From NCBI RefSeq assembly GCF_049060185.1, contig NZ_JBMEQO010000002.1: a DNA stretch of 64,000 nt; one strand, written 5' to 3'. The DNA is from Nannocystis pusilla. Lineage in GTDB: Bacteria > Myxococcota_A > Polyangia > Nannocystales > Nannocystaceae. Below, piece after piece: positions 3,470-54,371 of this stretch. The first letter of the stretch is position 1. Each line of letters begins with the position of its first letter. A model generated the notes under the pieces. That model saw only the letters and a program-made list of their open reading frames with translations, was not told the origin of the DNA and made no database searches. The position numbers were made by a program, and so were the translations under genes.

Positions 3470-4240
3470 GGTGATGCGAATGCGGGAGAGATCCAAGGTT
3501 GGCGGGGCGAGGGCGCGGAGCGGCGGCTGCTGGTGAGGAGAATGCGAGCCGTGTCCCGACGCCGGGGATGTCGCTATTCGGCGGAACTGCGGGGGCGGCG
3601 TCGGCTGCCGGCCAGGTCCGAACGGCTCGGGTTCCGACGAGGATACGGTGATTCAGCAGCGCTGCGGGGCGGGCGCCGGCTGCCGTGGGATCCGCATGCG
3701 CGCCCGCCGACGTGCGGGACACGGACCGGCGATTTGTCCGATCGCGGGGGCGTCGGAGCGGTGATGAGAATGCGCGTTCCGCTCGACGTGCGGGATGGAG
3801 GCCGGTGATTCGCCCGATCGCGGGGGGCGTCGGGGGCGGTGATGAGAATGTTGGCCGCGTCCGCGGCTCGGGACGGGGAGCGTGATTCGCCGGGGCCGCG
3901 GGGGCGCGCGCGAGGGGACGGTGCACCTGCAGCCGCGGGCGTGAGTGCGGAGCGGAGACCGGTAATTCGCCCGATCGCGGGGGGCGGTGATGGGAGGCTC
4001 GGGACGGGGAGCGGTGATTCGCCGGAGCCGCCGGGGGTCGTGCGCGAGGGGCCGCTGCGCCTGCAGCTGCGGGCGTGAGTGCGTGACGGAGACCGGCGGT
4101 TCGTCCGATCGCGGGGCGTCGGGGGCGGTGATGGGAATGGGAGCGGCGTTCGACGGACGAGGGCGGTGATTGGTCGGAGCCGCGGGCGGCCGTGCGCGAG
4201 GGGCCGGTGCGCCTGCAGCCGCGGTGTGGTTCGTCGCAGA
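3470..4240. repeat. imperfect intergenic tandem repeat; 3 full units of about 136-150 bp plus shorter partial units
   Basis: Recurring landmarks are gatcgcgggg(g)gcg, ggtgatg(a/g)gaatg and gcgcgaggggccgNtgcgcctgcagcYgcgg, spaced 86, 147, 136 and 150 bp apart. No coherent ORF crosses it. Confidence 0.7.
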
Positions 4241-5250: not shown

Positions 5251-5949
5251 GCAGCGGTCGGGATCGGCGGGCCCCAGGGCGTCGGAGGCGGCCCGGCGCG
5301 CGGCTTCGTAGGCCAGGCGCGCGCCGAGGTCGTCGCCGCGGCCGAGGACCTGGGCGGCGGCTTCGAGGCGGCGCAGGGGCCGTCCGGGCGCAGCTCGGGG
5401 TGCAGGGCCCGGTGCGCGAGTTCGGCGATCGAGGCGAGCGCGGCGGGCTGGCCGAGCAGCGCGCGCCACAGGTCGGCGCGCAGCTCGAAGCAGCGGACGG
5501 CCGCGCCGCTGGACGGGTGGCGCGAGACGGGCAGCGCGTCGAGGGGCGGTCCCGTCCCGCCGGGGCCAGCGCGCGCGAGAGGGAGCCGAGGAGCGAGCGG
5601 GGTCATGACGGCGCTGAAGACCAGCGTGTTCGGGAGCGCACGAGGTCGCAAGTCGCGGGTCGGACGAATCATTGTTCGTCGACCGCGAGACTGCTGCGAG
5701 ACGCTGGTGCGAGTGAAGGAGGAATTGCGGGTCGGTCGGGGCTCTCGGCCATGCGCGAGGCGCGGTCGAGCAGTGACGGCGGGCGCCTGTACTTCGGGAC
5801 AGCTCTCGACCTATCTGCCCTCTGTCGACCGAGCGACCGCAGCTCGCTGCGACTTTGACGAGGCGACGTCGCCCCACTCACCGCCCATCGCAGCGCGCCG
5901 ATCCGAGACCTCCTCACGCTGGGGTTATTCCGGGCGAGCGCATGAAAGG

Positions 5950-6215
5950 GGCACCCGCGAGGTTCTGCTTCGCGGTCGGTGATTCGCCCGGCGAGCGCAA
6001 GAGAGGGACAAGGAGGAGCGCGGGGCTCTTCGCGGACCGTGGGTGTTTCCCGGCGAGCGCAGGCGCGGGGAAGGAGGGAGCGCGGGGCTCTTCGCGGACA
6101 GTGGCGTTTCTGGGCGAGCGCAGGCGAGGGGGAAGGAGGGAGCGCGGGGCTCTTCGCGGACAGTGGGTGCTTTCCCGCGAGCGCAGGAGAGGGGCGGAGG
6201 AGAGAGCGCGCGGCG
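5950..6215. repeat. tandem repeat of about 62 bp, 3 near-identical and 2 degenerate copies
   Basis: gggagcgcggggctcttcgcggac begins at 6015, 6077 and 6139. The first copy contains ggtgattcgcc, also found in the 3470-4240 array. Confidence 0.7.
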
Positions 6216-8797: not shown

Positions 8798-9001
8798 CGA
8801 GCCGCGGGTGCCGTGACTGGCGGGATTGCAGCTCGACGCGCGGTAGGTGGGTCATGGGACGGGATGACCGTCGGCGAGCGGGATATGCAGCGCGAGACGA
8901 GTGACGGTCCGCTCTCGGAAAGCGGGATGTGCAACGCGACGCGGTTGCTTGTGACGGTCCGCTCTCGGCGAGCGGGATGGGCAGCGCGACGCGGTTGACG
9001 C

Positions 9002-13626
<4,625 letters not shown>

Positions 13627-13682: not shown

Positions 13683-14765
13683 TCAATCGTCGGGCGCTCC
13701 GGCCAGGTCGATGGAGGGCAGGTCGGGCTGCGGCAGGTCGGGCGGCGGCGCGGTCGGGGTCGGCGGCGTCAGTTGCACGGAGGTGCGGTTCAGCAGCGGC
13801 CGCAGCGTGGTGGCGTACTCCTCGATCTCGACGGCGTTCTGCTCGTACTGCCGCGACAGCGCGAGCAACCCGGCCGAGCCGGTGCGCTCGGCCTGCCGAC
13901 GGTACAGCGCGGCGTTCTCCTCGAGCGCCCGCAGGGCGCCCCACAAGGCACCCTCGAGCTTGGAGCCCTGCTCGGCCAGCAGCACCTCGGCGGTGAAGCC
14001 GTGGCCGACGTGACAGCGGAAGCGCAGCAGCTTGTCGCCGTCGGCCAGCTCCCACAGCGCGCCGCCGCATTCAGGGCAGGTGAACGGCGAGCGCGGGCCG
14101 GGCGGCTCGCTGTGCTGGAGCGCGGTGCCGTATTCGGCGGTGTCCTCGGTCTGGGCGGCCGGCGCCTGGGTGTCGGCCACGTGCTGCCGGATGAGCTGGC
14201 TCAAGACCTCGGGGATCGCGGCGGCCCGCAGGACGCTGTGGACCTCGACGGTCTGGATCGCCGACAGCGGCATGCTGGGGATCGTGGCTTCGGCCGGGTC
14301 CTGGGCGATCGCCAGGCCGCCGGCCTCGGTGATGCGCAGCAGACCCTCGGTGCCGTCGTTGAGGCCGCCCGAGAGGATGACGCCGATGACGCGCGCGCCG
14401 TAGGCGGAGGCGGCGCTGCGGAACAGCGGGTCGACCGCCGGGCGGAAGCCGTTCTCCTTGGGCCCGCGGGTGACTCGCACGTAGGCGCGCTTGACGAGCA
14501 AGTGATGATCGGGGCGGGCGACGTAGATCCGGCCGCGCTCGATGGCCTGGCGGTCCTCGGCGAGGGCGGCCGGCAGGACCGTGGCCCGCCCCAGCAGGGT
14601 CGACAGCATCCCGGGGTTGTCGGGCGACATGTGCATCGCCACGAACACCGCGGCCGGGAAATCGCTCGGCAGCCCGCGCACGATGTCGAGCAACGCGGTG
14701 AGGCCGCCGGCGGATGCCCCCATCACGACGATGTCACGCGGTGCGGTGGGGTTCGCTTTCGGCAA
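13683..14765 (-). CDS. stand-alone CheB-type methylesterase (no receiver) with C-terminal Cys/His-containing domain
   Basis: IVVMGASAGGLTAL...AVFVAMHMSPD...GVILSGGLNDGTEGL...QDPAEATIPSMP, then FTCPECGGAL...RFRCHVGHGF. The ORF is intact. Confidence 0.8.
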   Translation of the reverse strand: MPKANPTAPRDIVVMGASAGGLTALLDIVRGLPSDFPAAVFVAMHMSPDNPGMLSTLLGRATVLPAALAEDRQAIERGRIYVARPDHHLLVKRAYVRVTRGPKENGFRPAVDPLFRSAASAYGARVIGVILSGGLNDGTEGLLRITEAGGLAIAQDPAEATIPSMPLSAIQTVEVHSVLRAAAIPEVLSQLIRQHVADTQAPAAQTEDTAEYGTALQHSEPPGPRSPFTCPECGGALWELADGDKLLRFRCHVGHGFTAEVLLAEQGSKLEGALWGALRALEENAALYRRQAERTGSAGLLALSRQYEQNAVEIEEYATTLRPLLNRTSVQLTPPTPTAPPPDLPQPDLPSIDLAGAPDD

Positions 14766-14869
14766 GGTGCCATGGATGTTTCATTCCCCGCCGGTCGCAG
14801 GCAAGCCAAATCGTCGGGACGAGGGAATATGGGCTCCGACGTTTGTAATTCGGTTCACACGTTCGTCAG

Positions 14870-15491
14870 TCAATGATGAGTCTGCCGTCTGCATGAGCGC
14901 GCCCGGCGCTCGGGCGAAATGCATGCAGACGGTCCAGTCCGCTGGCGACGCATCCTAGCGGGGTTCCGCTGGCCGCGTCGCTCGGTCGACTCGCCCTGCA
15001 TCGACTCACGGGGGTTCTCGCCCTGGGTCATGCCGCTGCCGCCGCCCATGCCGCCCTGGCCGCTCGTCTGGCCCATGCGGCCCTGGCTGCCCTCGCCCTG
15101 GTTCATGCCGCCCATGCGGCCCTGGCTGGCGGCCTGGCTGGTACCTGCGCCGCCCCGCTCGCCCTGGCTCGTGCCTGCGCGACCGCCCTGGCTGCTCGTC
15201 TGGCCCATGCGACCGGCCTCGCCCTGGCCGGTCTGGCTCTCGCCCTGGGTGCGGCCCATCCGGCCGCTGCGCAGGACCTCCATGAGGTGGCGAGAGGCCT
15301 GCTCGATGTGCCGGGCGTCCTGCTCGTAGATCTGCTGCAAGAGCTCGACGCACTCGGGCGAGTTCGCCTGCTGCGCGTCCTGAATGTACTGCTCGTAGGC
15401 GCGGAGGGCCTCCGATTTGTGCTGGACGATGGTGACCCAATCGTAGGCGAGGTTGCTCAGGGGCTCTTGATTGCGCTTGTTCTCGTTCATG
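14870..15491 (-). CDS. hypothetical stress-like protein with helical N-domain and Gly/Gln-rich repeats
   Basis: MNENKRNQEPLSNLAYDWVTIVQHKSEALRAYEQYIQDA... is followed by GRMGQTS/GQGG low-complexity repeats. No family was securely recognised. Confidence 0.45.
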
Positions 15492-15959
15492 ATGAAATCT
15501 CCGGTCGCGCAGGTCTTTGATCGAATCGCCCGCGCGGGCCACCATTCGTTCGACTCGATCGGAGCCGCGGCGCGCGAGCCACGGGCCGCGTGCATGGCTT
15601 CGCTGGCTGCGAAGGCCTCGGCGTAGGCGGCGCACGAACGCGACGTCGGGTTCGGCACGCCTTGAGACGCAGCGGGGCGAGCCACCCTCGAGCGGACGAG
15701 CGCGCCGCGCTGGACCTCGAACCGGCGGCTGCTACGGTGAATGGTTTTCGGGCCCGGCGACACGGCGGTGGGCGTGGAACGGACGGGCCCGCCAGGGAAT
15801 GACGCAAGCGGCCGCGCGTGGTCGGCAGGCGACCGCGCGTCGCTTGCAGGTGCAGTTACTCGCCAGCGAGCGGCTGCGCCTGGTCAGGCGATCCGAGCAG
15901 GCGGCCGCGCGTCGCCCTCGGCGGCTGCGCCTGGTGAGCAGGCAACATCGCCAAAAGAC

Positions 15960-16560
15960 CGCGCAATGCCAGCGGGCGGAACGGTAATGCGAGCAGGTGA
16001 ACGGCAATGGGAGCAGGCGGAGCGGCGAGGCGAGCAGGTGCCAGCAGTGCGCAGCAGACGAACGACAATGCGGACAGGCGCCGGCGATGCGAGCAGGCGG
16101 AACGGCGACGCGGGCAGGTGCCAGCGATGCGAGCAGGCGGAGCGGCAATGCGAGCAGGGTCCGGCGATGTGAGCAGGCGGAGCGGCGAGGCGAGCAGGGG
16201 CCGGCGATGTGAGCAGACGGAGCGGCGATGCGAGCAGGCGGAGCGGCAATGCGAGCAGGCGGAACGGCGAGGCGAGCAGGTACCAGCGAAGCGAGCAGGC
16301 GGAGCGGCGATGCGAGCAGGCGGAGCGGCAATGCAAGCAGGCGGCCCGGCGATGCGAGCAGGCGGCCCGGCAACGCGAGCAGGCGGCCCGGCAACGCGAG
16401 CAGGCGCCAGCAATGCGAGCAGGCGGTCGCGTCACGCATCGCGGAGGGGCAGTGCGCAACGCGAGCAGGCGCCAGCAATGCGAGCAGGCGGTCGCGTCAT
16501 GCATCGCGAGCGACTGCGCAATGCGATCAGGCGGCCCGGTAATGCGAGCAGGCGGCTGCG
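15960..16560. repeat. array of about 30 copies of 9-bp core GCGAGCAGG separated by 10- or 12-nt variable spacers
   Basis: Read directly, e.g. gcgagcagg cggagcggcaat gcgagcagg gtccggcgat gtgagcagg cggagcggcgag. Units of 19 and 21 bp are interleaved, so it cannot keep a reading frame. It lies upstream of the 14870-15491 gene and downstream of the GT1 gene. Confidence 0.8.
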
Positions 16561-16674
16561 CGCTGCGCGGCGGGACGGGCGGCTGTGTGTCGCGAGCGAG
16601 CGACCGCGCGGGTTCGGCTCGCCGCGCGGCGAACTGGAGCCCGGGCGGCCGGAAGAGCGCGCAGGCGACGCCGC

Positions 16675-17820
16675 TCAGGGGTTGGCGACGGGCGGGGCGA
16701 CGAGGCGCGTCAGGACGGCCTCCATGACGCCCCAGGTGTCGTCCCACGAGCTGCCGCGCAGGCAGGTGTCGACGCGCTGCAGCCAGCGGCGACGGTCGGC
16801 GCGGTGGAGCTCGCACTGAACGGCGATCACGAAGTCCTCGGCGCCCTCGGCGATCGAGACCATGCCCTGGATGGCGTACGGGTTGATGACGTCGCGCAGC
16901 GGGGTGGCCACCACCGGCTTGCCGGCGGCCAGGTACTCGAGGGTCTGGGACGGCTTGGCGCGGCGGAGGGCGGCCTCGTGGTTGAAGGGCAGGAGGGCGA
17001 TGTCCCAGCCGGCGAGGTAGGCGGGCAGCTCGGCGTAGGACTTGGGCCCGAGCTCGTGGATGTTGGGCCGGGCGGGCAAGCGGGGCCGGTCGGAGCCGCC
17101 CTCGTGGTCGATGAGGACGATGTGGAAGTCGGTCCGCAGGTCGGCGACGGCGACCAGGAGGTCGATGTCGACGTCGCGGTCGAGGGCGCCGTAGAAGCCG
17201 AGGCGGGGGTGGGGGATGTCGCGCTGATCGGCCGGGTCGGGGCCGCCGGCGCGGGCGCGGGCGAAGTGCGCCAGGTCGACGCCGCGCGGCAGGAGGTGGG
17301 TGGCCGGGCCGAACTCGGGGCCGAGCGGGTCGTGGCCGGCGTCGACGAACACGGCGTCCGCCCGGCGCAGGGCCTCGTCCCGCAGGGCCTCGTCGCCCTC
17401 GAGCGGCGACCGCGGCCCGCCCGGGCAATCGTAGTAGATGGTGGCGACCGGCTTGAGGCGGCAGGCGGCCATGGCCCGCGGCGAATCGTGGCACAGGACG
17501 AAGCCGCCGAGGCCGAGGTCGCGGACGACGCCGTCGAGCAGGCCGCGCAGGAGGGCGGTCGCCTCGTCGCCGGTCAGGCCGCGCGGTACGAAGGGAGTGG
17601 CGACCACGAGACCCTCGCGGTGGTCGAAGTCCATCCGCGGCGGGCCGGCGGTCGGCACCACGGCCTCGACGAAGACGACGCGCCGTTGCCGCGCGCCGCG
17701 AGACAGGAGATGCCGCAGACGCCGGGGTATGGCCTCCCAGGCGAGCTGCGAGACCCACAGGACCGGATGGCCGCCGGCGCTCGCCTGCGCCGGCGGAGGC
17801 CGATCCATGTCGTTCAACAT
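16675..17820 (-). CDS. GT1/GT4-type glycosyltransferase
   Basis: HPVLWVSQLAW..., LGFYGALDRDVDIDLLVAVAD, ELGPKSYAELPAYLAGWDIALLPF and AAGKPVVATP match the retaining GT-B family layout. The longer upstream ORF extension is low-complexity. Confidence 0.7.
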   Translation of the reverse strand: MLNDMDRPPPAQASAGGHPVLWVSQLAWEAIPRRLRHLLSRGARQRRVVFVEAVVPTAGPPRMDFDHREGLVVATPFVPRGLTGDEATALLRGLLDGVVRDLGLGGFVLCHDSPRAMAACRLKPVATIYYDCPGGPRSPLEGDEALRDEALRRADAVFVDAGHDPLGPEFGPATHLLPRGVDLAHFARARAGGPDPADQRDIPHPRLGFYGALDRDVDIDLLVAVADLRTDFHIVLIDHEGGSDRPRLPARPNIHELGPKSYAELPAYLAGWDIALLPFNHEAALRRAKPSQTLEYLAAGKPVVATPLRDVINPYAIQGMVSIAEGAEDFVIAVQCELHRADRRRWLQRVDTCLRGSSWDDTWGVMEAVLTRLVAPPVANP

Positions 17821-18113
17821 ACCTTCGAGACCGGCTCTCATGTCCCAGGTATGGTCGGGTCCGCACGCTCGGCAACCCTCGGATTTTCCCTCGGTCGCCA
17901 GCCCCCGCCGGAGCCGGCGCCTGCGGTCCACCGCCCTCGGCCTGGGCAAATCGGGCGAACTGGGGAGTACTATCATTCGCCGCGTCCGGCAAATCGTCAT
18001 AGTCGAGCTTGTCCCGGCGCGGTAGCGCGCCATACTCCACCCCGCAATGCGGTCGCGGCGGGTCCCCGATGTCCGGAGGCCGGCGCGCCCGCGCCAGGAA
18101 ATACGAGGACGTC

Positions 18114-18518
18114 ATGCCTACCAGGGACGACAACCGCAACGAGAACAAGGGCGAGAACAAGGGCCAGCGCGGCGGTGGGCGCGGCTTCGCCGGGATGGAC
18201 GAGGACAAACAACGCGAGATCGCCAGCAAGGGCGGTCACGCCGCCCACGAGAAAGGCACCGCGCACGAATTCACGTCCGAGGAGGCGCGCGAGGCCGGAC
18301 GCAAGGGCGGCGAGGCGGTCAGCCAGGACCGCGAGCACATGGCCGAGATCGGCGCAAAGGGCGGTCACGCTTCGCACGGCGGCCGCCGCACCGGCGAGGG
18401 CCGCGGCGAGGAGGGCCGCGGCACGGACGAGGAGCGGGAGCGCCGTTCGTCGCAGTCGCAGCAACGCGGCGGGCAGGGCGGCGGACAGGGCGGGGGCATC
18501 GCCAGCGCTGAGGAGTGA
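18114..18518 (+). CDS. KGG-repeat stress-induced protein (YciG-like)
   Basis: Repeated IASKGGHAAHEKG, AGRKGGEAV and IGAKGGHASHGG motifs; small and highly charged. Confidence 0.7.
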   Translation: MPTRDDNRNENKGENKGQRGGGRGFAGMDEDKQREIASKGGHAAHEKGTAHEFTSEEAREAGRKGGEAVSQDREHMAEIGAKGGHASHGGRRTGEGRGEEGRGTDEERERRSSQSQQRGGQGGGQGGGIASAEE

Positions 18519-18564
18519 CTCGGCGGACCTCCATCGCGCGAGAGCCGGCTTCCTTTCGCGCGGT

Positions 18565-18975
18565 GCCGGGGCCGCTTGTTTGCATTGCCGGCCGGTCGCG
18601 CGGGCGGCGGGCCGCGAGGTGGTGAAGGGCGGCGGCGTCGGCATCGCGGGTCACCTGTTTTGCATTGCGGCGCGGGCGGGCGCGGGCGGCCGGCTACGAG
18701 TGATGAATTGCGGCATGATCGGCATCGCGGGTCGCCTGTTTGCATTGAGTCGCGGGCCGGGGCGGGCGGTCGGCTGGGAGTGATGAATCGTGGCGGGGTC
18801 GGCATCGCGGGTCGCCTGTTTGCATTGAGTCGCGGGCCGGGCCGGGGCGGGCGGTCGGCTGCGAGTGATGAATCGCGGCGGGTCGGCATCGCGGGCCGCC
18901 TGTTTGCATTGCAGCGCGGGGTGGCCGCGCGGTCGGCTGCGAGGCGAGGAATCGTGGCGTCGGGGCGGCGAATCG
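18565..18975. repeat. intergenic tandem repeat of about 81 bp, 4-5 copies
   Basis: cggcatcgcgggtcgcctgtttgcattg...gggcgggcggtcggctgNgagtgatgaatcg recurs at 18641, 18721, 18800 and 18884. Confidence 0.7.
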
Positions 18976-20325
18976 TCGCAATGGCCATGCGCATCATCGC
19001 GTTGCCGCGAGCGGGGAATCAGACGGGCGCAAGGAATCCTCGCCTCGACTCGCGGTGAGCCAGCATCGGTGCACGCGGATGGCCGTATCGTCCCGCTCGT
19101 CACGCGGACGCGGAGCGGCGGGGAGCCCCGTAGCGAGTCGCCGCAAGCAAATCGCATGAGGTGGATCTGGCGCGTCAGTTCGAGCGTCGAAATCGCCGTA
19201 TCGTCACGCTCGGTGGACCGGCTCGTGCAGTGAGTATTCGGCGACGCGGGGGCGCACTTCGAGGCGCGAATCACCGCCATGGCGAGAGCCGCGCGCCGGC
19301 GTGCATGGCTCCGATTCGTCGTAGGGTCTCGAGCGGTCGGGGCGATTGTTCCTCGCGCCGCATCGATCGTTTCAGGGGATCACCACGGAGAGGGCCCGGG
19401 CCGGCGTCGTCGGCGGCGCGACCGGCGGGCGCGAGGGCGCCGGCGGCGAAGCGGCCCAGGAGGCACGCGGCCAGCTCGTCGGGGTCGCGTCGCGCGTGCT
19501 CGGCGGCGGCGCGGACGCGGGCCAGGGCGGCGGCATCGGGGAAGTGGATCTCGAGCCGGCGCGGGTCGGGGCGCGGCGAGACCGGCCGCAGGTGCTCGCA
19601 CGCTGTTCCCTCGGTGGGGGAACGCCGAGCGTGCTGGCAGGGCCGGGCAGGACGCGATTCGGGAGCCCGCCGGCGCCGGGGCCGGCGGAATAGCGGACTC
19701 TGCGGAGGAGAATGTGCGTCGGGAGGCTGCGACGGCGATTCGGGGGCGAATGCCGGCAAAGACGGCCGTGGCGGGCCCGCGCGCCCCATGACGTGAGATC
19801 GCGGAGATTGGCGCTGGTGCATGCTCGGGGCGGCGAGGCTGCGACCGATTGTCGCGACCCGTGAGAGGGTCGGTCATTCGCAGACGTAGGCCGATCGGCG
19901 AGAGCGCTATGATCATAGTCGGCGTGGGGCGCGGCGCTCGCTCCGCCGGCGGAGCCGCCGCCGCTGCGATTCACGGGTGGCGGCGGCGGACGGCCGTCTG
20001 TTATAGTGAGCCGCCTCTGCTGTTGCGAGCGATCGTCGGAGGACGCCCTCGCTCGCCTTCACTGGACTCTACGCATTTTGACGCCCTTGCACCGACGTTC
20101 ATTCCTCATGATCACGCCGACGCGCCGTCCCTGCCCGAGAACCTCCTCCTCCGCGCACGATCGTTCGTTGCGAACCTCGTGGAGCTGCGGGGCTGAACGC
20201 CCCTTCGACCCGGTCCTCCGGCGCCGATTGGTGATCATGCACGCACTCGCTCGTTCCTCTCGCCGTGGTCCTGGGCCGGCGTCGGCCCGCGCGAACAGGC
20301 CGGGCCGGCGCGGCCGCTGCCGCCC

Positions 20326-27974: not shown

Positions 27975-28310
27975 GGCGGGTCATGACATTGCGGCGGCGA
28001 TGGTGCGCGGGCGGATCCATGATATTACGAGGGGCGGGCGCCAGCGCGGATCGGATTCATGACATTGAGGGGCGAGCGATTCGGAGTGGTCGGGGGTCGA
28101 GGCATCGGCTCATGACATTGAGGGGCGAGCGATTCGGAGCGGTCGGGTCGAGGCATCGGCTCATGACATTGAGGGGCGAGCGATTCGGAGCGGTCGGGTC
28201 GAGGCATCGGCTCATGACATTGAGGGGGAGCGATTCGGAGTGGTCGGCGATCGAGGCATCGGCTCATGACATTGAGGGGGAGCGATTCGGAGTGTCGGCG
28301 GTCGAGGCGA
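27975..28310. repeat. intergenic tandem repeat of about 51 bp, 5 near-identical and 2 degenerate copies, between two GT9 genes
   Basis: tcatgacattgaggggcgagcgattcggagcggtcgggtcgaggcatcggc repeats from about 28047 to 28310. Its catgacat(t/a)tga start resembles the dispersed CATGTCC palindrome. Confidence 0.75.
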
Positions 28311-31820: not shown

Positions 31821-32554
31821 GGCCAGCTCGTCTCGCGCATCGGCACGACCATCAGCTCGGGGATGACCGACTCGCCGGGCATGGCGAGGAGGAAGCGGAT
31901 GGTCTCGGCGACGTTGCGCGGGTCCTGGAGGTTGGTGATCGGGGTGTCGGGGAAGCGGTCGAGGATGAAGGGGTGCGCATGCCGCCGGCCAGCAGGGCGG
32001 TGACCTTGATGCCGAACGGGCGGCCCTCGACGTGCAGGGCGTGCGACAGGCCCAAAAGGCCCCACTTGCTGGCGTGGTAGGCGCTGGCGTTCTGCCAGGC
32101 CCGCTTGGCGGCGGTCGAGACGATGTTGACGATGTAGCCTCCCCTGGGCGCGCAGGCGCGGGAAGGCGGCGCGGCTGAGGACGAACGGGCCGCGCAGGTT
32201 GACGGCGAGGACGCGGTCGATGTCGTCGACGCTGAGCTCGTCGACCGCGAGCGTCTTGTCGGTGCCGGCGTTGTTGACGAGGACGTCGAGCCGGCCGTGG
32301 CGGGCGACGATGGCGTCGATCAAGGACTGCCCGGCCTCGGCGTCGCGCACGTCGAGCTCGGCGGCCTCGATGCGGCCGCCGAGGTCGCGCACCTCGGCGA
32401 CGAGGCGGGCGAGCGGACCGGACTGGATGTCGGCGGCGATCACGTGCGCGCCGGCGGCCGCGAGGGTGCGACCGATCTCGGCGCCGAGGCCCGAGCCGCC
32501 GCCGGTGACGAGCACGATCTTGTCCGCGAGGGGTGATTCGATCACGAGGGTCAT
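31817..32554 (-). CDS. SDR-family oxidoreductase inside the heptose cluster; 2 frame breaks
   Basis: VLVTGGGSGLGAEIG Rossmann fold; DVLVNNAG; catalytic region HALHVEGRPFGIKVTALLAGGM in the adjacent frame; C-terminal HPFILDRFPDTP. Confidence 0.6.
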   Translation of the reverse strand: MTLVIESPLADKIVLVTGGGSGLGAEIGRTLAAAGAHVIAADIQSGPLARLVAEVRDLGGRIEAAELDVRDAEAGQSLIDAIVARHGRLDVLVNNAGTDKTLAVDELSVDDIDRVLAVNLRGPFVLSRAAFPRLRAQGRLHRQHRLDRRQAGLAERQRLPRQQVGPFGPVARPARRGPPVRHQGHRPAGRRHAHPFILDRFPDTPITNLQDPRNVAETIRFLLAMPGESVIPELMVVPMRETSWP

Positions 32555-32649
32555 CGGTCCTCCGAGTGCGATGATTCGATGCAGGGCCGGAGCCGGTGAG
32601 GCGGGGTGATGCGAACGCGAGGGTCATCGGTCCTCCGAGTGCGATGATT

Positions 32650-34519: not shown

Positions 34520-34559
34520 GCGGTCCTCCGGGCCGGCTCGGGGCCTGTCCCGCGGGACA

Positions 34560-35575
34560 GGTGGTGACGGGCGGGAGGAGCTGGTCTTCGGGACATCCGG
34601 TGAGCGGCGGTATGACCTGTCCCTCGGGACATCCGGTGACCTCGCCCAGGACCCGCGACCAGTCGGCGGCGAAGCGGCCGATGCCGAACCGCTGGCGGGC
34701 GATCCGGCGGGCGCCGGCGGCCAGCTCGGCGGCCTCGGCGGGGTCGGCGAGCAGGCGCCGCATGTGCGCGATCAGGCGGTCGAGGTCGGTCTCGACGTAG
34801 CCGTTGACGCCGCTCTGCACGGCGGTGCTCATCTCGGTGGTGGCGAGGCCGAGGATCGGCAGGCCGATCATCATCGCCTCGCACACCGCCAGGCCGAGGC
34901 TGGTGTAGCGGATCGGGTTGAAGAAGAAGCGGTAGCGGCCGAGGCGGGCGTGGAGCTCGCGCAGCGGCAGGTCGCCGAGGCCGCCGAGCGCGGCCGAGTC
35001 CATGCCGGCCAGGTCGAGCGGGACGTGGGCGCGCACGCGGTCGAACACGTCGCGGCCGAGCCGACGCCCGCGCCGCGCGAGGTCGTTGACGACGACGATG
35101 CCGCGCGCGAGCTCGCCGCTGTAGGTGGTGTCGTCGGGGACGACGACGCCGTGCTCGACGACCCGCACGGGGTGCGCCCGGCGTCCCACATGAGGGCGTT
35201 GAACGGGGTGACGTGGACGAGCAGGACGTCGGGGTCGTCGACCGGGTGGCGGGTGTCGGTCGGCGACTCGCGCGGCGGATCGTGCTCGAGGTAGACGCGC
35301 GGCAGGCGGCGCTGGGCGGCGCCGAGGATCTCGAACTGGTCGCACTCGTAGTTGCGGCGCGACTGGAACAGGACGACGTCGAACGGCTGCTGCGCGAGGA
35401 GCTCGACCGGGACCTCGTGGACGTTGGCGCCCCAGGCGAAGCTGCCGCTGCGCCCGCCGTAGCCCTCGGGTCGACCTGGCTTTACGGGCAGGTAGAATTC
35501 GTGCGGCGCCTGGGTGAGGTAGTAGAGGTAGCTGCCGTGAACGTGCCAGGTCAGGACGCGGAGTCGTCGCACGAG
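34560..35575 (-). CDS. GT4/GT1 glycosyltransferase; 1 frame break near 35190; stop not identified
   Basis: N: RVLTWHVHGSYLYYLT...FDVVLFQSRRNY...LLVHVTPFNALMW. C: GIVVVNDLARRG...FFFNPIRYTSLGLAVCEAMMIGLPILGLATTEMS...GYVETDLDRLIAH. Probable GTG start. Confidence 0.5.
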
Positions 35576-53809: not shown

Positions 53810-54371
53810 ATGCAACGCTCGCACCTCTTCGCCACTCTCCTCTCTCTCCGCGCTCGTCGCCTGCGACAAGCCGAAGGCGGCCGAGCCGGCCAAGGCGGCC
53901 GAGCCGGCCAAGGCGGCCGAGCCGGTCAAGGCGGCCGAGCCGGCCAAGGCGGCCGAGCCGATCAAGGCGGCCGAGCCGGTCAAGGCGACTGAGCCGGCTG
54001 GAGCGGTCAGCCAAAACGATCGCAGCAAGGATCCCGCGTTTGCGCTCAAGACCGAGGGCCACAACTACGTCGGCCTGGTGGTCGATCGTTGCCCCGAGGG
54101 CTTCCGGATCGCCAGCTCTCTGCACGAGGCCGAGCCCAAGATCGAGGGCGACAAGCTGCTCCTCAAGCTGCACTACGGCGGGTGCCCGCTGTGGACCGGC
54201 TTTGCAGTGGTCCCCGGACAGGGCTCGCCGCTGCCGTTCTATCTGTGCGAGGACATCGAGCACGACCGTTGTGAGCTGGCCGGCCACAAGACGTGGGAGT
54301 TCGCTATCGGCGAGGCGCTCAAGAAGAGCGGCGCGACCGCGGTGACCTACGCGACGCCGCCGGCCCAGTGA
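53810..54371 (+). CDS. lipoprotein with six AKAAEP tandem repeats and a conserved C-terminal domain; frame break in ctctctctc near 53845
   Basis: MQRSHLFATLLSL, then after a shift SALVACDKPK (lipobox), then (AAEPAK)x6 encoded by 18-bp repeats gccaaggcggccgagccg, then ...VVDRCPEGFRIASSLHEAEPKIEGDKLLLKLHYGGCPLWTGFAVVPG... Confidence 0.55.

Follow-up and report, generated by a model that had tools for sequence, protein, structure and literature searches.

A non-coding intergenic minisatellite of interleaved 19- and 21-bp units in Nannocystis pusilla, apparently restricted to one lineage

Introduction

Bacterial intergenic minisatellites, also known as variable number tandem repeats (VNTRs) and used as loci in multiple-locus VNTR analysis (MLVA), are head-to-tail, non-coding and degenerate repeats with higher-order periodicity and units of ~20–65 bp. 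Their copy number and unit composition differ strongly between related strains. An array with these properties, including the three features by which VNTRs are recognised, lies between genes for a glycosyltransferase and a glycine- and glutamine-rich (G/Q-rich) protein in Nannocystis pusilla, where it occupies positions 15963-16555 of a 64,000-nucleotide stretch of contig NZ_JBMEQO010000002.1 (assembly GCF_049060185.1; hereafter the window). The array belongs to this already known class. An earlier note on this DNA had called it no standard annotated feature class, but tandem repeats, with VNTRs and minisatellites among them, form just such a class.

Several other described systems resemble the array in part. 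In Mycobacterium tuberculosis, a change in the copy number of promoter tandem repeats is reported to alter promoter strength, and the copy number to vary in isogenic populations (PMC12817950). Repetitive extragenic palindromic sequences (REP), bacterial interspersed mosaic elements (BIME) and mycobacterial interspersed repetitive units (MIRU) share with it a position between genes of the same direction and a tandem arrangement, and its long units, though not the dominant short ones, carry an imperfect palindrome as well. Plasmid iterons are likewise direct repeats of ~19–22 bp placed about two helical turns apart, and clustered regularly interspaced short palindromic repeats (CRISPR) show the same regular alternation of a more conserved and a more variable segment.

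Weighing these systems against the evidence below, we favour a reading, with a probability of about 60%, in which the array is a non-coding, lineage-restricted and hypervariable minisatellite that arose by slippage or unequal exchange.

Structure of the array

The array and its parts are listed below by window position.

15963-16555: main tandem array, with periods of 21, 40 and 65 (Tandem Repeats Finder)
15989..16433, no strand: short-unit block, which cannot be aligned with the arrays of relatives
21-bp 'A' units: GCGAGCAGG-CGG(A/C)(G/A/C)CGG(C/T)(A/G)A(T/G/C)
19-bp 'B' units: GCGAGCAGG-NNCC(A/G)GC(G/A)AT
16415..16565: right-hand part, long units (46 and 43 bp) with the imperfect palindrome GGTCGCGTCAYGCATCGCGAGCGACTGCGCAAT, short units interleaved
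15800..15962: left-hand degenerate long units at spacings of 24-41 bp, with cores GCTTGCAGG, CCGAGCAGG and GTGAGCAGG

The core GCGAGCAGG occurs in 18 exact plus-strand copies (15989-16544) and in nine near-exact ones within the array, five with one mismatch and four with two, which brings the total to ~27–28 and agrees with the ~30 copies over ~600 bp first reported. The units of 19 and 21 bp named in the earlier note are also borne out, with core-to-core distances of 21 bp (14 times), 19 bp (seven times) and 20 bp (once), besides a few long units of 30, 43, 46 and 48 bp. The 18-mer GGCAATGCGAGCAGGCGG has 22 matches in the array at up to three mismatches, against 0.39 expected by chance in the whole window.

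Tandem Repeats Finder describes 15963-16426 as 22.8 copies at period 21 or 11.4 copies at period 40, the latter with the top score of 478, and 16391-16555 at period 65. For the array it gives ~23 copies at 76–79% matches. The order of units along the array is AbA..BABABABAAABAAAAAB[46]B[43]A, in which four successive A+B pairs form a 40-bp higher-order unit, and this alternation is the reason that the 40-bp period scores best.

The division of the array into an invariant 9-mer and spacers, as originally proposed, cannot be kept. Just 18 of the ~28 cores are exact, and in the 14 units of 21 bp the spacer positions 10–12 (CGG), 15–17 (CGG) and 20 (A) are equally invariant, with variation at core positions 2 and 3 and at positions 13, 14, 18, 19 and 21. 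Conserved and variable positions are scattered over the entire 21-mer rather than split into core and spacers, and the 19-bp units are a separate sequence class rather than 21-mers carrying errors. As some spacer positions are invariant and core positions 2 and 3 are not, what is present is a degenerate tandem repeat of ordinary kind, with units of 21 and 19 bp. The earlier dismissal of a CRISPR array is upheld by the 9-bp core and by the 10–12-bp 'spacers', which have invariant positions and come in few variants. No cas gene was found among the four neighbouring genes scanned, the remaining window not having been searched for cas.

The repeat grades outward into longer and more degenerate units, to ~15800 on the left and ~16600 on the right. 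Its right-hand part (16415..16565) aligns with the array of Nannocystis sp. RBIL2, which itself consists mainly of such long units. A palindrome such as GCGTCGCTCACGAGCGACTGCGC is present in the long units of the window, RBIL2 and one further relative (contig L125); the dominant short units have none. On the plus strand the array is G- and purine-rich (G 44.7%, C 27.2%, A 21.8%, T 6.4%).

Coding status

The array is non-coding DNA. In a frame plot of GC content at third codon positions (GC3), values reach 0.9–1.0 in 14900-15490 and again from ~16680 onward, and GC3 periodicity is absent across 15500-16650. Long open reading frames (ORFs) span the array on both strands, and as a 21-bp unit corresponds to seven amino acids they could be taken for a heptad-repeat protein. 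Long stop-free frames are, however, expected by chance at 72% GC, the value for the window, and the distinct class of 19-bp units together with the 20-, 43- and 46-bp units disrupts every reading frame. Length differences among orthologous arrays are not multiples of three either. Hence, in the absence of a GC3 signal and with unit lengths that are not multiples of three, the ORFs across the array are spurious, as the earlier note had held. An assembly artefact pure and simple is opposed by the presence of a related array at the same site in independent assemblies, although the exact copy number here is less certain. The idea of a coded heptad protein or an artefact is largely refuted and so improbable as to carry next to no weight.

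The same site in relatives

The proteins of the window are closest to those of Nannocystis (Myxococcota), and the order glycosyltransferase, intergenic region, G/Q-rich gene, CheB is kept in every relative recovered. The site compares as follows.

Window: ~28 units, mainly short
Nannocystis sp. RBIL2 (L016): 278-bp stretch that does not align (665 bp in the window), with ~7 long units (43-62 bp) carrying the hairpin GCGTCGCTCACGAGCGACTGCGC and 3-4 short units
L001: ~8 short degenerate units, GCGAGGAGG and GCGAGCAAT
L130 (glycosyltransferase 94% identical): ~5 units, of which three short, one long and one terminal
L125 and L126: contigs stop within arrays of other long-unit variants
L131: contig stops 73 bp past the glycosyltransferase stop codon
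N. punicea (L002) and the Joint Genome Institute (JGI) metagenomic contig L127: no array at the site
N. bainbridge (L003), 5379-5705: unrelated array of 51/100-bp units in the same intergenic region

The flanks are ~94–95% identical (~95% in RBIL2, ~94% in L001). Counted across relatives, as the earlier note had suggested, the units fall from ~28 here to ~12 in RBIL2, ~8 in L001 and ~5 in L130, with none in N. punicea; several of the contigs compared are short-read or metagenome assemblies in which repeats may collapse or break, so that these copy numbers are lower bounds. Three relatives' contigs end in or beside the array. The composition of the arrays differs as well. Their 9-mer core degenerates to GCGAGCGAG, GCGAGGAGG or GCGAGCAAT, the 21-mers in common between the window array and four related arrays number 5, 0, 0 and 0, and the element that persists is essentially the junction GGCAAT-GCGAGC(A/G)(A/G)G-CGG. 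The array is thus limited to one lineage, as far as tested, and turns over much faster than its flanks.

The N. bainbridge array has 6.3 copies at 91–95% matches. The intergenic site between the glycosyltransferase and the G/Q-rich gene is seemingly a recurrent hotspot of array formation.

Distribution of the unit

Within the sequence searched, the unit is confined to this locus. Neither the unit nor the palindrome of the long units has another copy in the 64-kb window, and a search of metagenome contigs with the full unit pattern returned no arrays, its two matches being single chance occurrences within coding sequence. A known repeat family present at many loci, which the earlier note had named as grounds for abandoning its view, did not appear in the window or in these contigs.

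The bare 9-mer is far less specific than the unit. Outside the array, the window holds ten plus-strand copies and two on the opposite strand. The ten are all in coding sequence and none has the flanking bases of the unit, and the 9-mers in minus-strand genes are mostly in CTG-CTC-GCx (Leu-Leu-Ala) phase. A polar motif of the kind of Chi or the FtsK-orienting polar sequences (KOPS) was considered for this 10:2 strand bias and rejected, as coding sequence, mostly Leu-Leu-Ala codons, accounts for it.

A scan of 185,579 species genomes, one per species, for three cores 10–12 nt apart gave at least 120 matches in unrelated phyla, each with a different 19–21-bp unit. Among the matches listed, at least some are coding, judged from the sequences read, and only Nannocystis sp. 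RBIL2 is a true ortholog. The 9-mer core was rejected as a family marker on these grounds, since the 120 or more matches listed carry differing units across phyla. Two of the arrays resemble the one in the window, with 21-bp units in which this 9-mer is flanked by GGCA(A). One is in a metagenome-assembled genome of Archangium gephyra (L079 4373-4549, GCGAGCAGGCACTCGGCAACT, ~15 or more copies) and the other in Citreicoccus inhibens (L025 5791-5841, GCGAGCAGGAGCCTGTCGGCA, 4 copies). Their likeness is compatible with chance because the matches were selected on the 9-mer.

Genomic context and the adjacent gene

The glycosyltransferase, G/Q-rich and CheB genes are all on the minus strand, with the array between the first two. 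The features around it are as follows.

16675..17820, minus strand: group 1 glycosyltransferase gene, 381 aa; the open frame reaches 18033
16566..16674, minus strand: GC-rich inverted repeats (e.g. 16610-16641) just 3' of the glycosyltransferase stop, kept in relatives
15491..15770, minus strand: leader/promoter region of the G/Q-rich gene, separating the array from the ATG
14870..15490, minus strand: G/Q-rich protein gene, 206 aa, left of the array
18114-18518, plus strand: KGG-repeat stress protein gene, right of the glycosyltransferase

The G/Q-rich protein has a conserved helical N-terminal domain of ~80 aa followed by a low-complexity tail rich in G, Q, M and S, and matched no Pfam or NCBIfam family. 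Its orthologs are labelled 'Rubrerythrin' or 'Ferritin-like diiron domain-containing protein' in the source databases. Its N. punicea ortholog is 72% identical to it, and proteins in public sequencing-run assemblies are 82–89% identical. Searches for exact matches to the G/Q-rich and KGG proteins of the window, and to the glycosyltransferase of N. exedens, gave no result.

The earlier note had proposed a hypermutable minisatellite occupying the promoter of the G/Q-rich gene. The variability that this implies is seen among relatives, in copy number and in composition; the placement in the promoter is not, as the array lies distal to a conserved leader. The intergenic region measures 1184 bp in the window, of which the ~190 nt before the ATG are conserved genus-wide in an alignment of eight orthologous upstream regions. 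A second block, ~255–275 bp upstream of the ATG, recurs in N. bainbridge. Going upstream from the ATG, it is 352 bp to the first degenerate unit and 473 bp to the regular array, both beyond the conserved leader of ~190–270 bp, so the promoter-proximal region is not occupied. The array could as well be said to lie in the 3' region of the glycosyltransferase gene, from whose stop codon it is separated by 120 bp. The inverted repeats in that gap have no T-run and, from their sequence, are a possible terminator.

The leader itself (15491-15700, minus strand) and its orthologs in L001, L002, L003, L016 and L125–L127 share the blocks GCGCCGCCTACGCCG, CCAGCGAGGCCATGCA, GGTGGCC and GATCAA, a degree of conservation exceeding expectation for a simple promoter. 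RNAalifold gives it a consensus fold without covariation support, and Rfam gives no match.

These data bear on the possibility that the array is a copy-number-dependent cis-regulatory repeat, either a contingency locus or a promoter tandem repeat, which tunes the G/Q-rich stress-like gene. The array is upstream of that gene on the path of transcription toward it, its copy number differs ~5-fold or more among relatives, and its neighbours are of stress type (the KGG-repeat protein here and CsbD near the N. bainbridge ortholog). However, it is at least 350 bp from the ATG and outside the leader, and so does not appear to overlap the promoter. Gene and leader are kept in N. punicea without any array, which argues against a necessary role. 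No sigma-70-like promoter sites were found in 14700-18200, and the units have no promoter-like hexamers. Similar arrays in the window also lie between convergent genes. A regulatory role of this kind is therefore considered unlikely.

The G/Q-rich (14870-15490, minus strand) and KGG-repeat (18114-18518, plus strand) genes form a small cluster of stress-type low-complexity proteins, and in N. bainbridge a CsbD gene is found near the G/Q-rich ortholog.

DNA binding and RNA-level roles

The regular spacing of the units raises the question of a binding-site array for a sequence-specific DNA-binding protein, which could be iteron-like, an enhancer for a sigma-54 activator or a platform of nucleoid or partition type. 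The array has a conserved motif of ~12–18 bp in about 28 copies, all on one strand, which lie 19–21 bp apart, or about two helical turns, and the direct repeats at 19/21 bp are within the 17–22 bp and helical-turn spacing expected of iterons. The junction motif is also retained in the arrays of relatives. The iteron-like array put forward in the earlier note nonetheless finds no counterpart in its surroundings. No rep gene is present among the neighbours (glycosyltransferase, G/Q-rich protein, KGG protein, CheB), no DnaA box was found in 14000-19000 at up to two mismatches, and the same interval has no AT-rich stretch, its lowest 40-bp GC content being 40% at 14842, outside the array. The 9-mer moreover degenerates in relatives, whose 5–12 units are of another type, and the array is missing altogether from N. 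punicea.

Activator binding fares no better. A scan for sigma-54-type promoters (TGGCACG-N4-TTGCW, requiring the GG and GC dinucleotides and at least 9 of the 12 defined positions) found none upstream of the G/Q-rich gene in the seven sequences covered, namely the window and six orthologs. Nla28 is a Myxococcus activator with the half-site consensus CT[C/G]CG[C/G]AG (PMC9765219). At up to two mismatches, the array has 60 of its half-sites per kb and the whole window 63, so that there is no enrichment for this one enhancer-binding protein scored. Isolated copies of the motif are absent from the rest of the window and from the metagenome scan. A dedicated binding platform is accordingly judged very unlikely.

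An element acting at the RNA level has been weighed on other evidence. In one version, transcription running past the glycosyltransferase gene would yield ~600 nt of C-rich, G-poor and unstructured RNA onto which Rho could load, insulating the gene downstream; in the other, the GGA/AGG-rich plus-strand transcript would act as a protein sponge. The array is directly 3' of the glycosyltransferase gene end, and the minus-strand RNA (C 44.7%, G 27.2%) has a C/G ratio of 1.65 against a window median of 1.26. The RNA of the array folds much worse than dinucleotide shuffles (z = +5.5 on the minus and +3.0 on the plus strand). The minus strand thus has the properties of a Rho utilisation (rut) site, being C-rich, G-poor and poorly structured RNA of at least ~80 nt located 3' of a gene. 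This is weakly diagnostic because the whole window is skewed (GC skew ~+0.12); the ratio of 1.65 is below the 90th percentile of the window (1.81), and a C-rich minus-strand RNA is normal for this region. A skewed direct repeat is also poorly structured as a matter of course. About five units, or none, suffice in relatives, and a search of Rfam over 14500-19500 (E up to 1) was negative, sponge RNAs included. An RNA-level role is thus held to be quite improbable.

Origin of the array

Slippage or unequal exchange and a lack of function would fit what is seen of the anatomy, non-coding status and position of the array and of its variation between lineages. Under the favoured minisatellite reading, the ancestral state may have been a small cluster of intergenic repeats between the end of the glycosyltransferase gene and the conserved leader of the G/Q-rich gene. 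This cluster would have comprised long units of 43–65 bp with an imperfect palindrome and short derivatives of ~20 bp that lack it, and each lineage would have reshaped it on its own. Here, short units of 21 and 19 bp, often as 40-bp pairs, would have been amplified to ~27 copies. Slipped-strand mispairing during replication, unequal homologous exchange or both may have driven the amplification, followed by point mutation at a few positions. In all likelihood, such an array has no function that depends on its specific sequence. If it affects its neighbours at all, it would do so as a poorly structured spacer of variable length between the upstream terminator and the downstream promoter region.

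Several points weigh against this account. The junction motif is kept in the arrays of all five relatives, which could reflect selection rather than concerted evolution. A unit of 19–21 bp is about two helical turns and would place repeated sites on one face of the DNA, and the retention of a 600–800-bp insert between bacterial genes invites the thought of a function. Furthermore, three of the arrays compared come from short-read or metagenome assemblies, so that their copy numbers are lower bounds, and the variation is seen between species-level relatives and not within a population.

Other arrays in the window

The window contains at least seven further intergenic tandem arrays, and so at least eight in 64 kb, an unusually high density.

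3696-4116: intergenic tandem array
5987-6214: intergenic tandem array
8871-9042: intergenic tandem array
18569..18959: second array, ~80-bp units GGCATCGCGGGTCGCCTGTTTGCATTGAG..., between the KGG gene and a minus-strand ORF, unrelated to the main array
28005-28308: intergenic tandem array
32534-32649: intergenic tandem array
34544-34641: intergenic tandem array

All of these arrays are G-rich on the plus strand, with a pooled GC skew of 0.25 against ~0.10 elsewhere. Three lie between convergent genes; arrays as a class are therefore not promoter elements. The array at 18569-18959 is the sole other one comparable with RBIL2, and has ~5–6 units here against ~2 in that relative. In N. punicea, no intergenic arrays are present within the 12.5 kb examined.

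The six arrays other than 18569-18959 have differing units of 36–134 bp. Several of them have GATTCG or TGATTCGCC-like motifs in common, and GCGAG and CTCGC occur in them 47 and 3 times, respectively. CAATGCAAACAGGCG, on the minus strand of 18569-18959, resembles CAATGCGAGCAGGCG of the main array, by which the two arrays would flank the pair of glycosyltransferase and KGG genes in opposite orientation. At 15/18, however, the identity is about chance level, and a shared motif is doubtful.

A bolder proposal is that these arrays represent an undescribed genome-wide class of strand-polar, fast-expanding intergenic Nannocystis minisatellites, with copy number at the present locus acting as an evolvable dial on the stress-protein gene through a dedicated binding protein or Rho-type insulation. 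The arrays of the window are all G-rich on the same strand, which is probably the leading strand. Taken as a whole, this proposal is distinctly unlikely.

The GC skew of the plus strand over 1-64000 is very strong, with a mean of ~+0.12, and falls to ~0 only after 60 kb. It is 0.076 in plus-strand coding, 0.126 in minus-strand coding and 0.097 in non-coding sequence. Most predicted genes of the window are on the minus strand, yet the plus-strand skew is positive.

Two further repeats lie in probable coding sequence. A 21/42/84-bp periodic repeat at 11355-11572, inside a large gene of CheB/CheR/PAS type, presumably encodes a heptad repeat, and the counterpart gene in N. punicea has a similar 21/42-bp repeat (L002 9949-10123). 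The other, at 53874-53998, is an 18-bp tandem repeat, AAGGCGGCCGAGCCGGCC, with 6.9 copies (92% matches) that probably encode a hexapeptide repeat.

Significance and comparison with known systems

At present the main import of the array is a caveat for annotation and assembly, as it gives rise to spurious ORFs and short-read assemblies break or collapse at it. Strains of this Nannocystis clade could also be typed at this locus. Its import would be greater if copy number did tune the adjacent stress-type gene. If the pattern were true genome-wide, the density of minisatellites of the same polarity would inform the origin and tolerance of long intergenic regions in very large myxobacterial genomes.

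Among known systems, CRISPR repeats are ~23–55 bp with unique spacers, whereas the present array has a core of 9 bp, and its 'spacers' belong to the repeat unit itself. Iterons number 3–7 and are associated with a rep gene, a DnaA box and an AT-rich unwinding element, none of which accompanies the ~28 copies found here. This array is chromosomal, in DNA of 72–73% GC, and unconserved among relatives. REP and MIRU elements are present at tens to hundreds of loci, in contrast to a unit that occurs only here in the sequence searched, and the dominant short units differ from them in having no palindrome.

The promoter repeats of M. tuberculosis are closer in setting. They too are reported from a high-GC host, upstream of stress-related genes and variable in copy number between lineages (PMC12817950). 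The array described here differs in being distal to a conserved leader and in having no repeated promoter motif.

The closest match is with the VNTRs. The array departs from them in that its variation is documented between species-level relatives rather than within a population, and in that it is found at a single locus and, as far as tested, in one sub-clade of Nannocystis. Its interleaved classes of 19- and 21-bp units are the peculiar feature of what is a bacterial VNTR.

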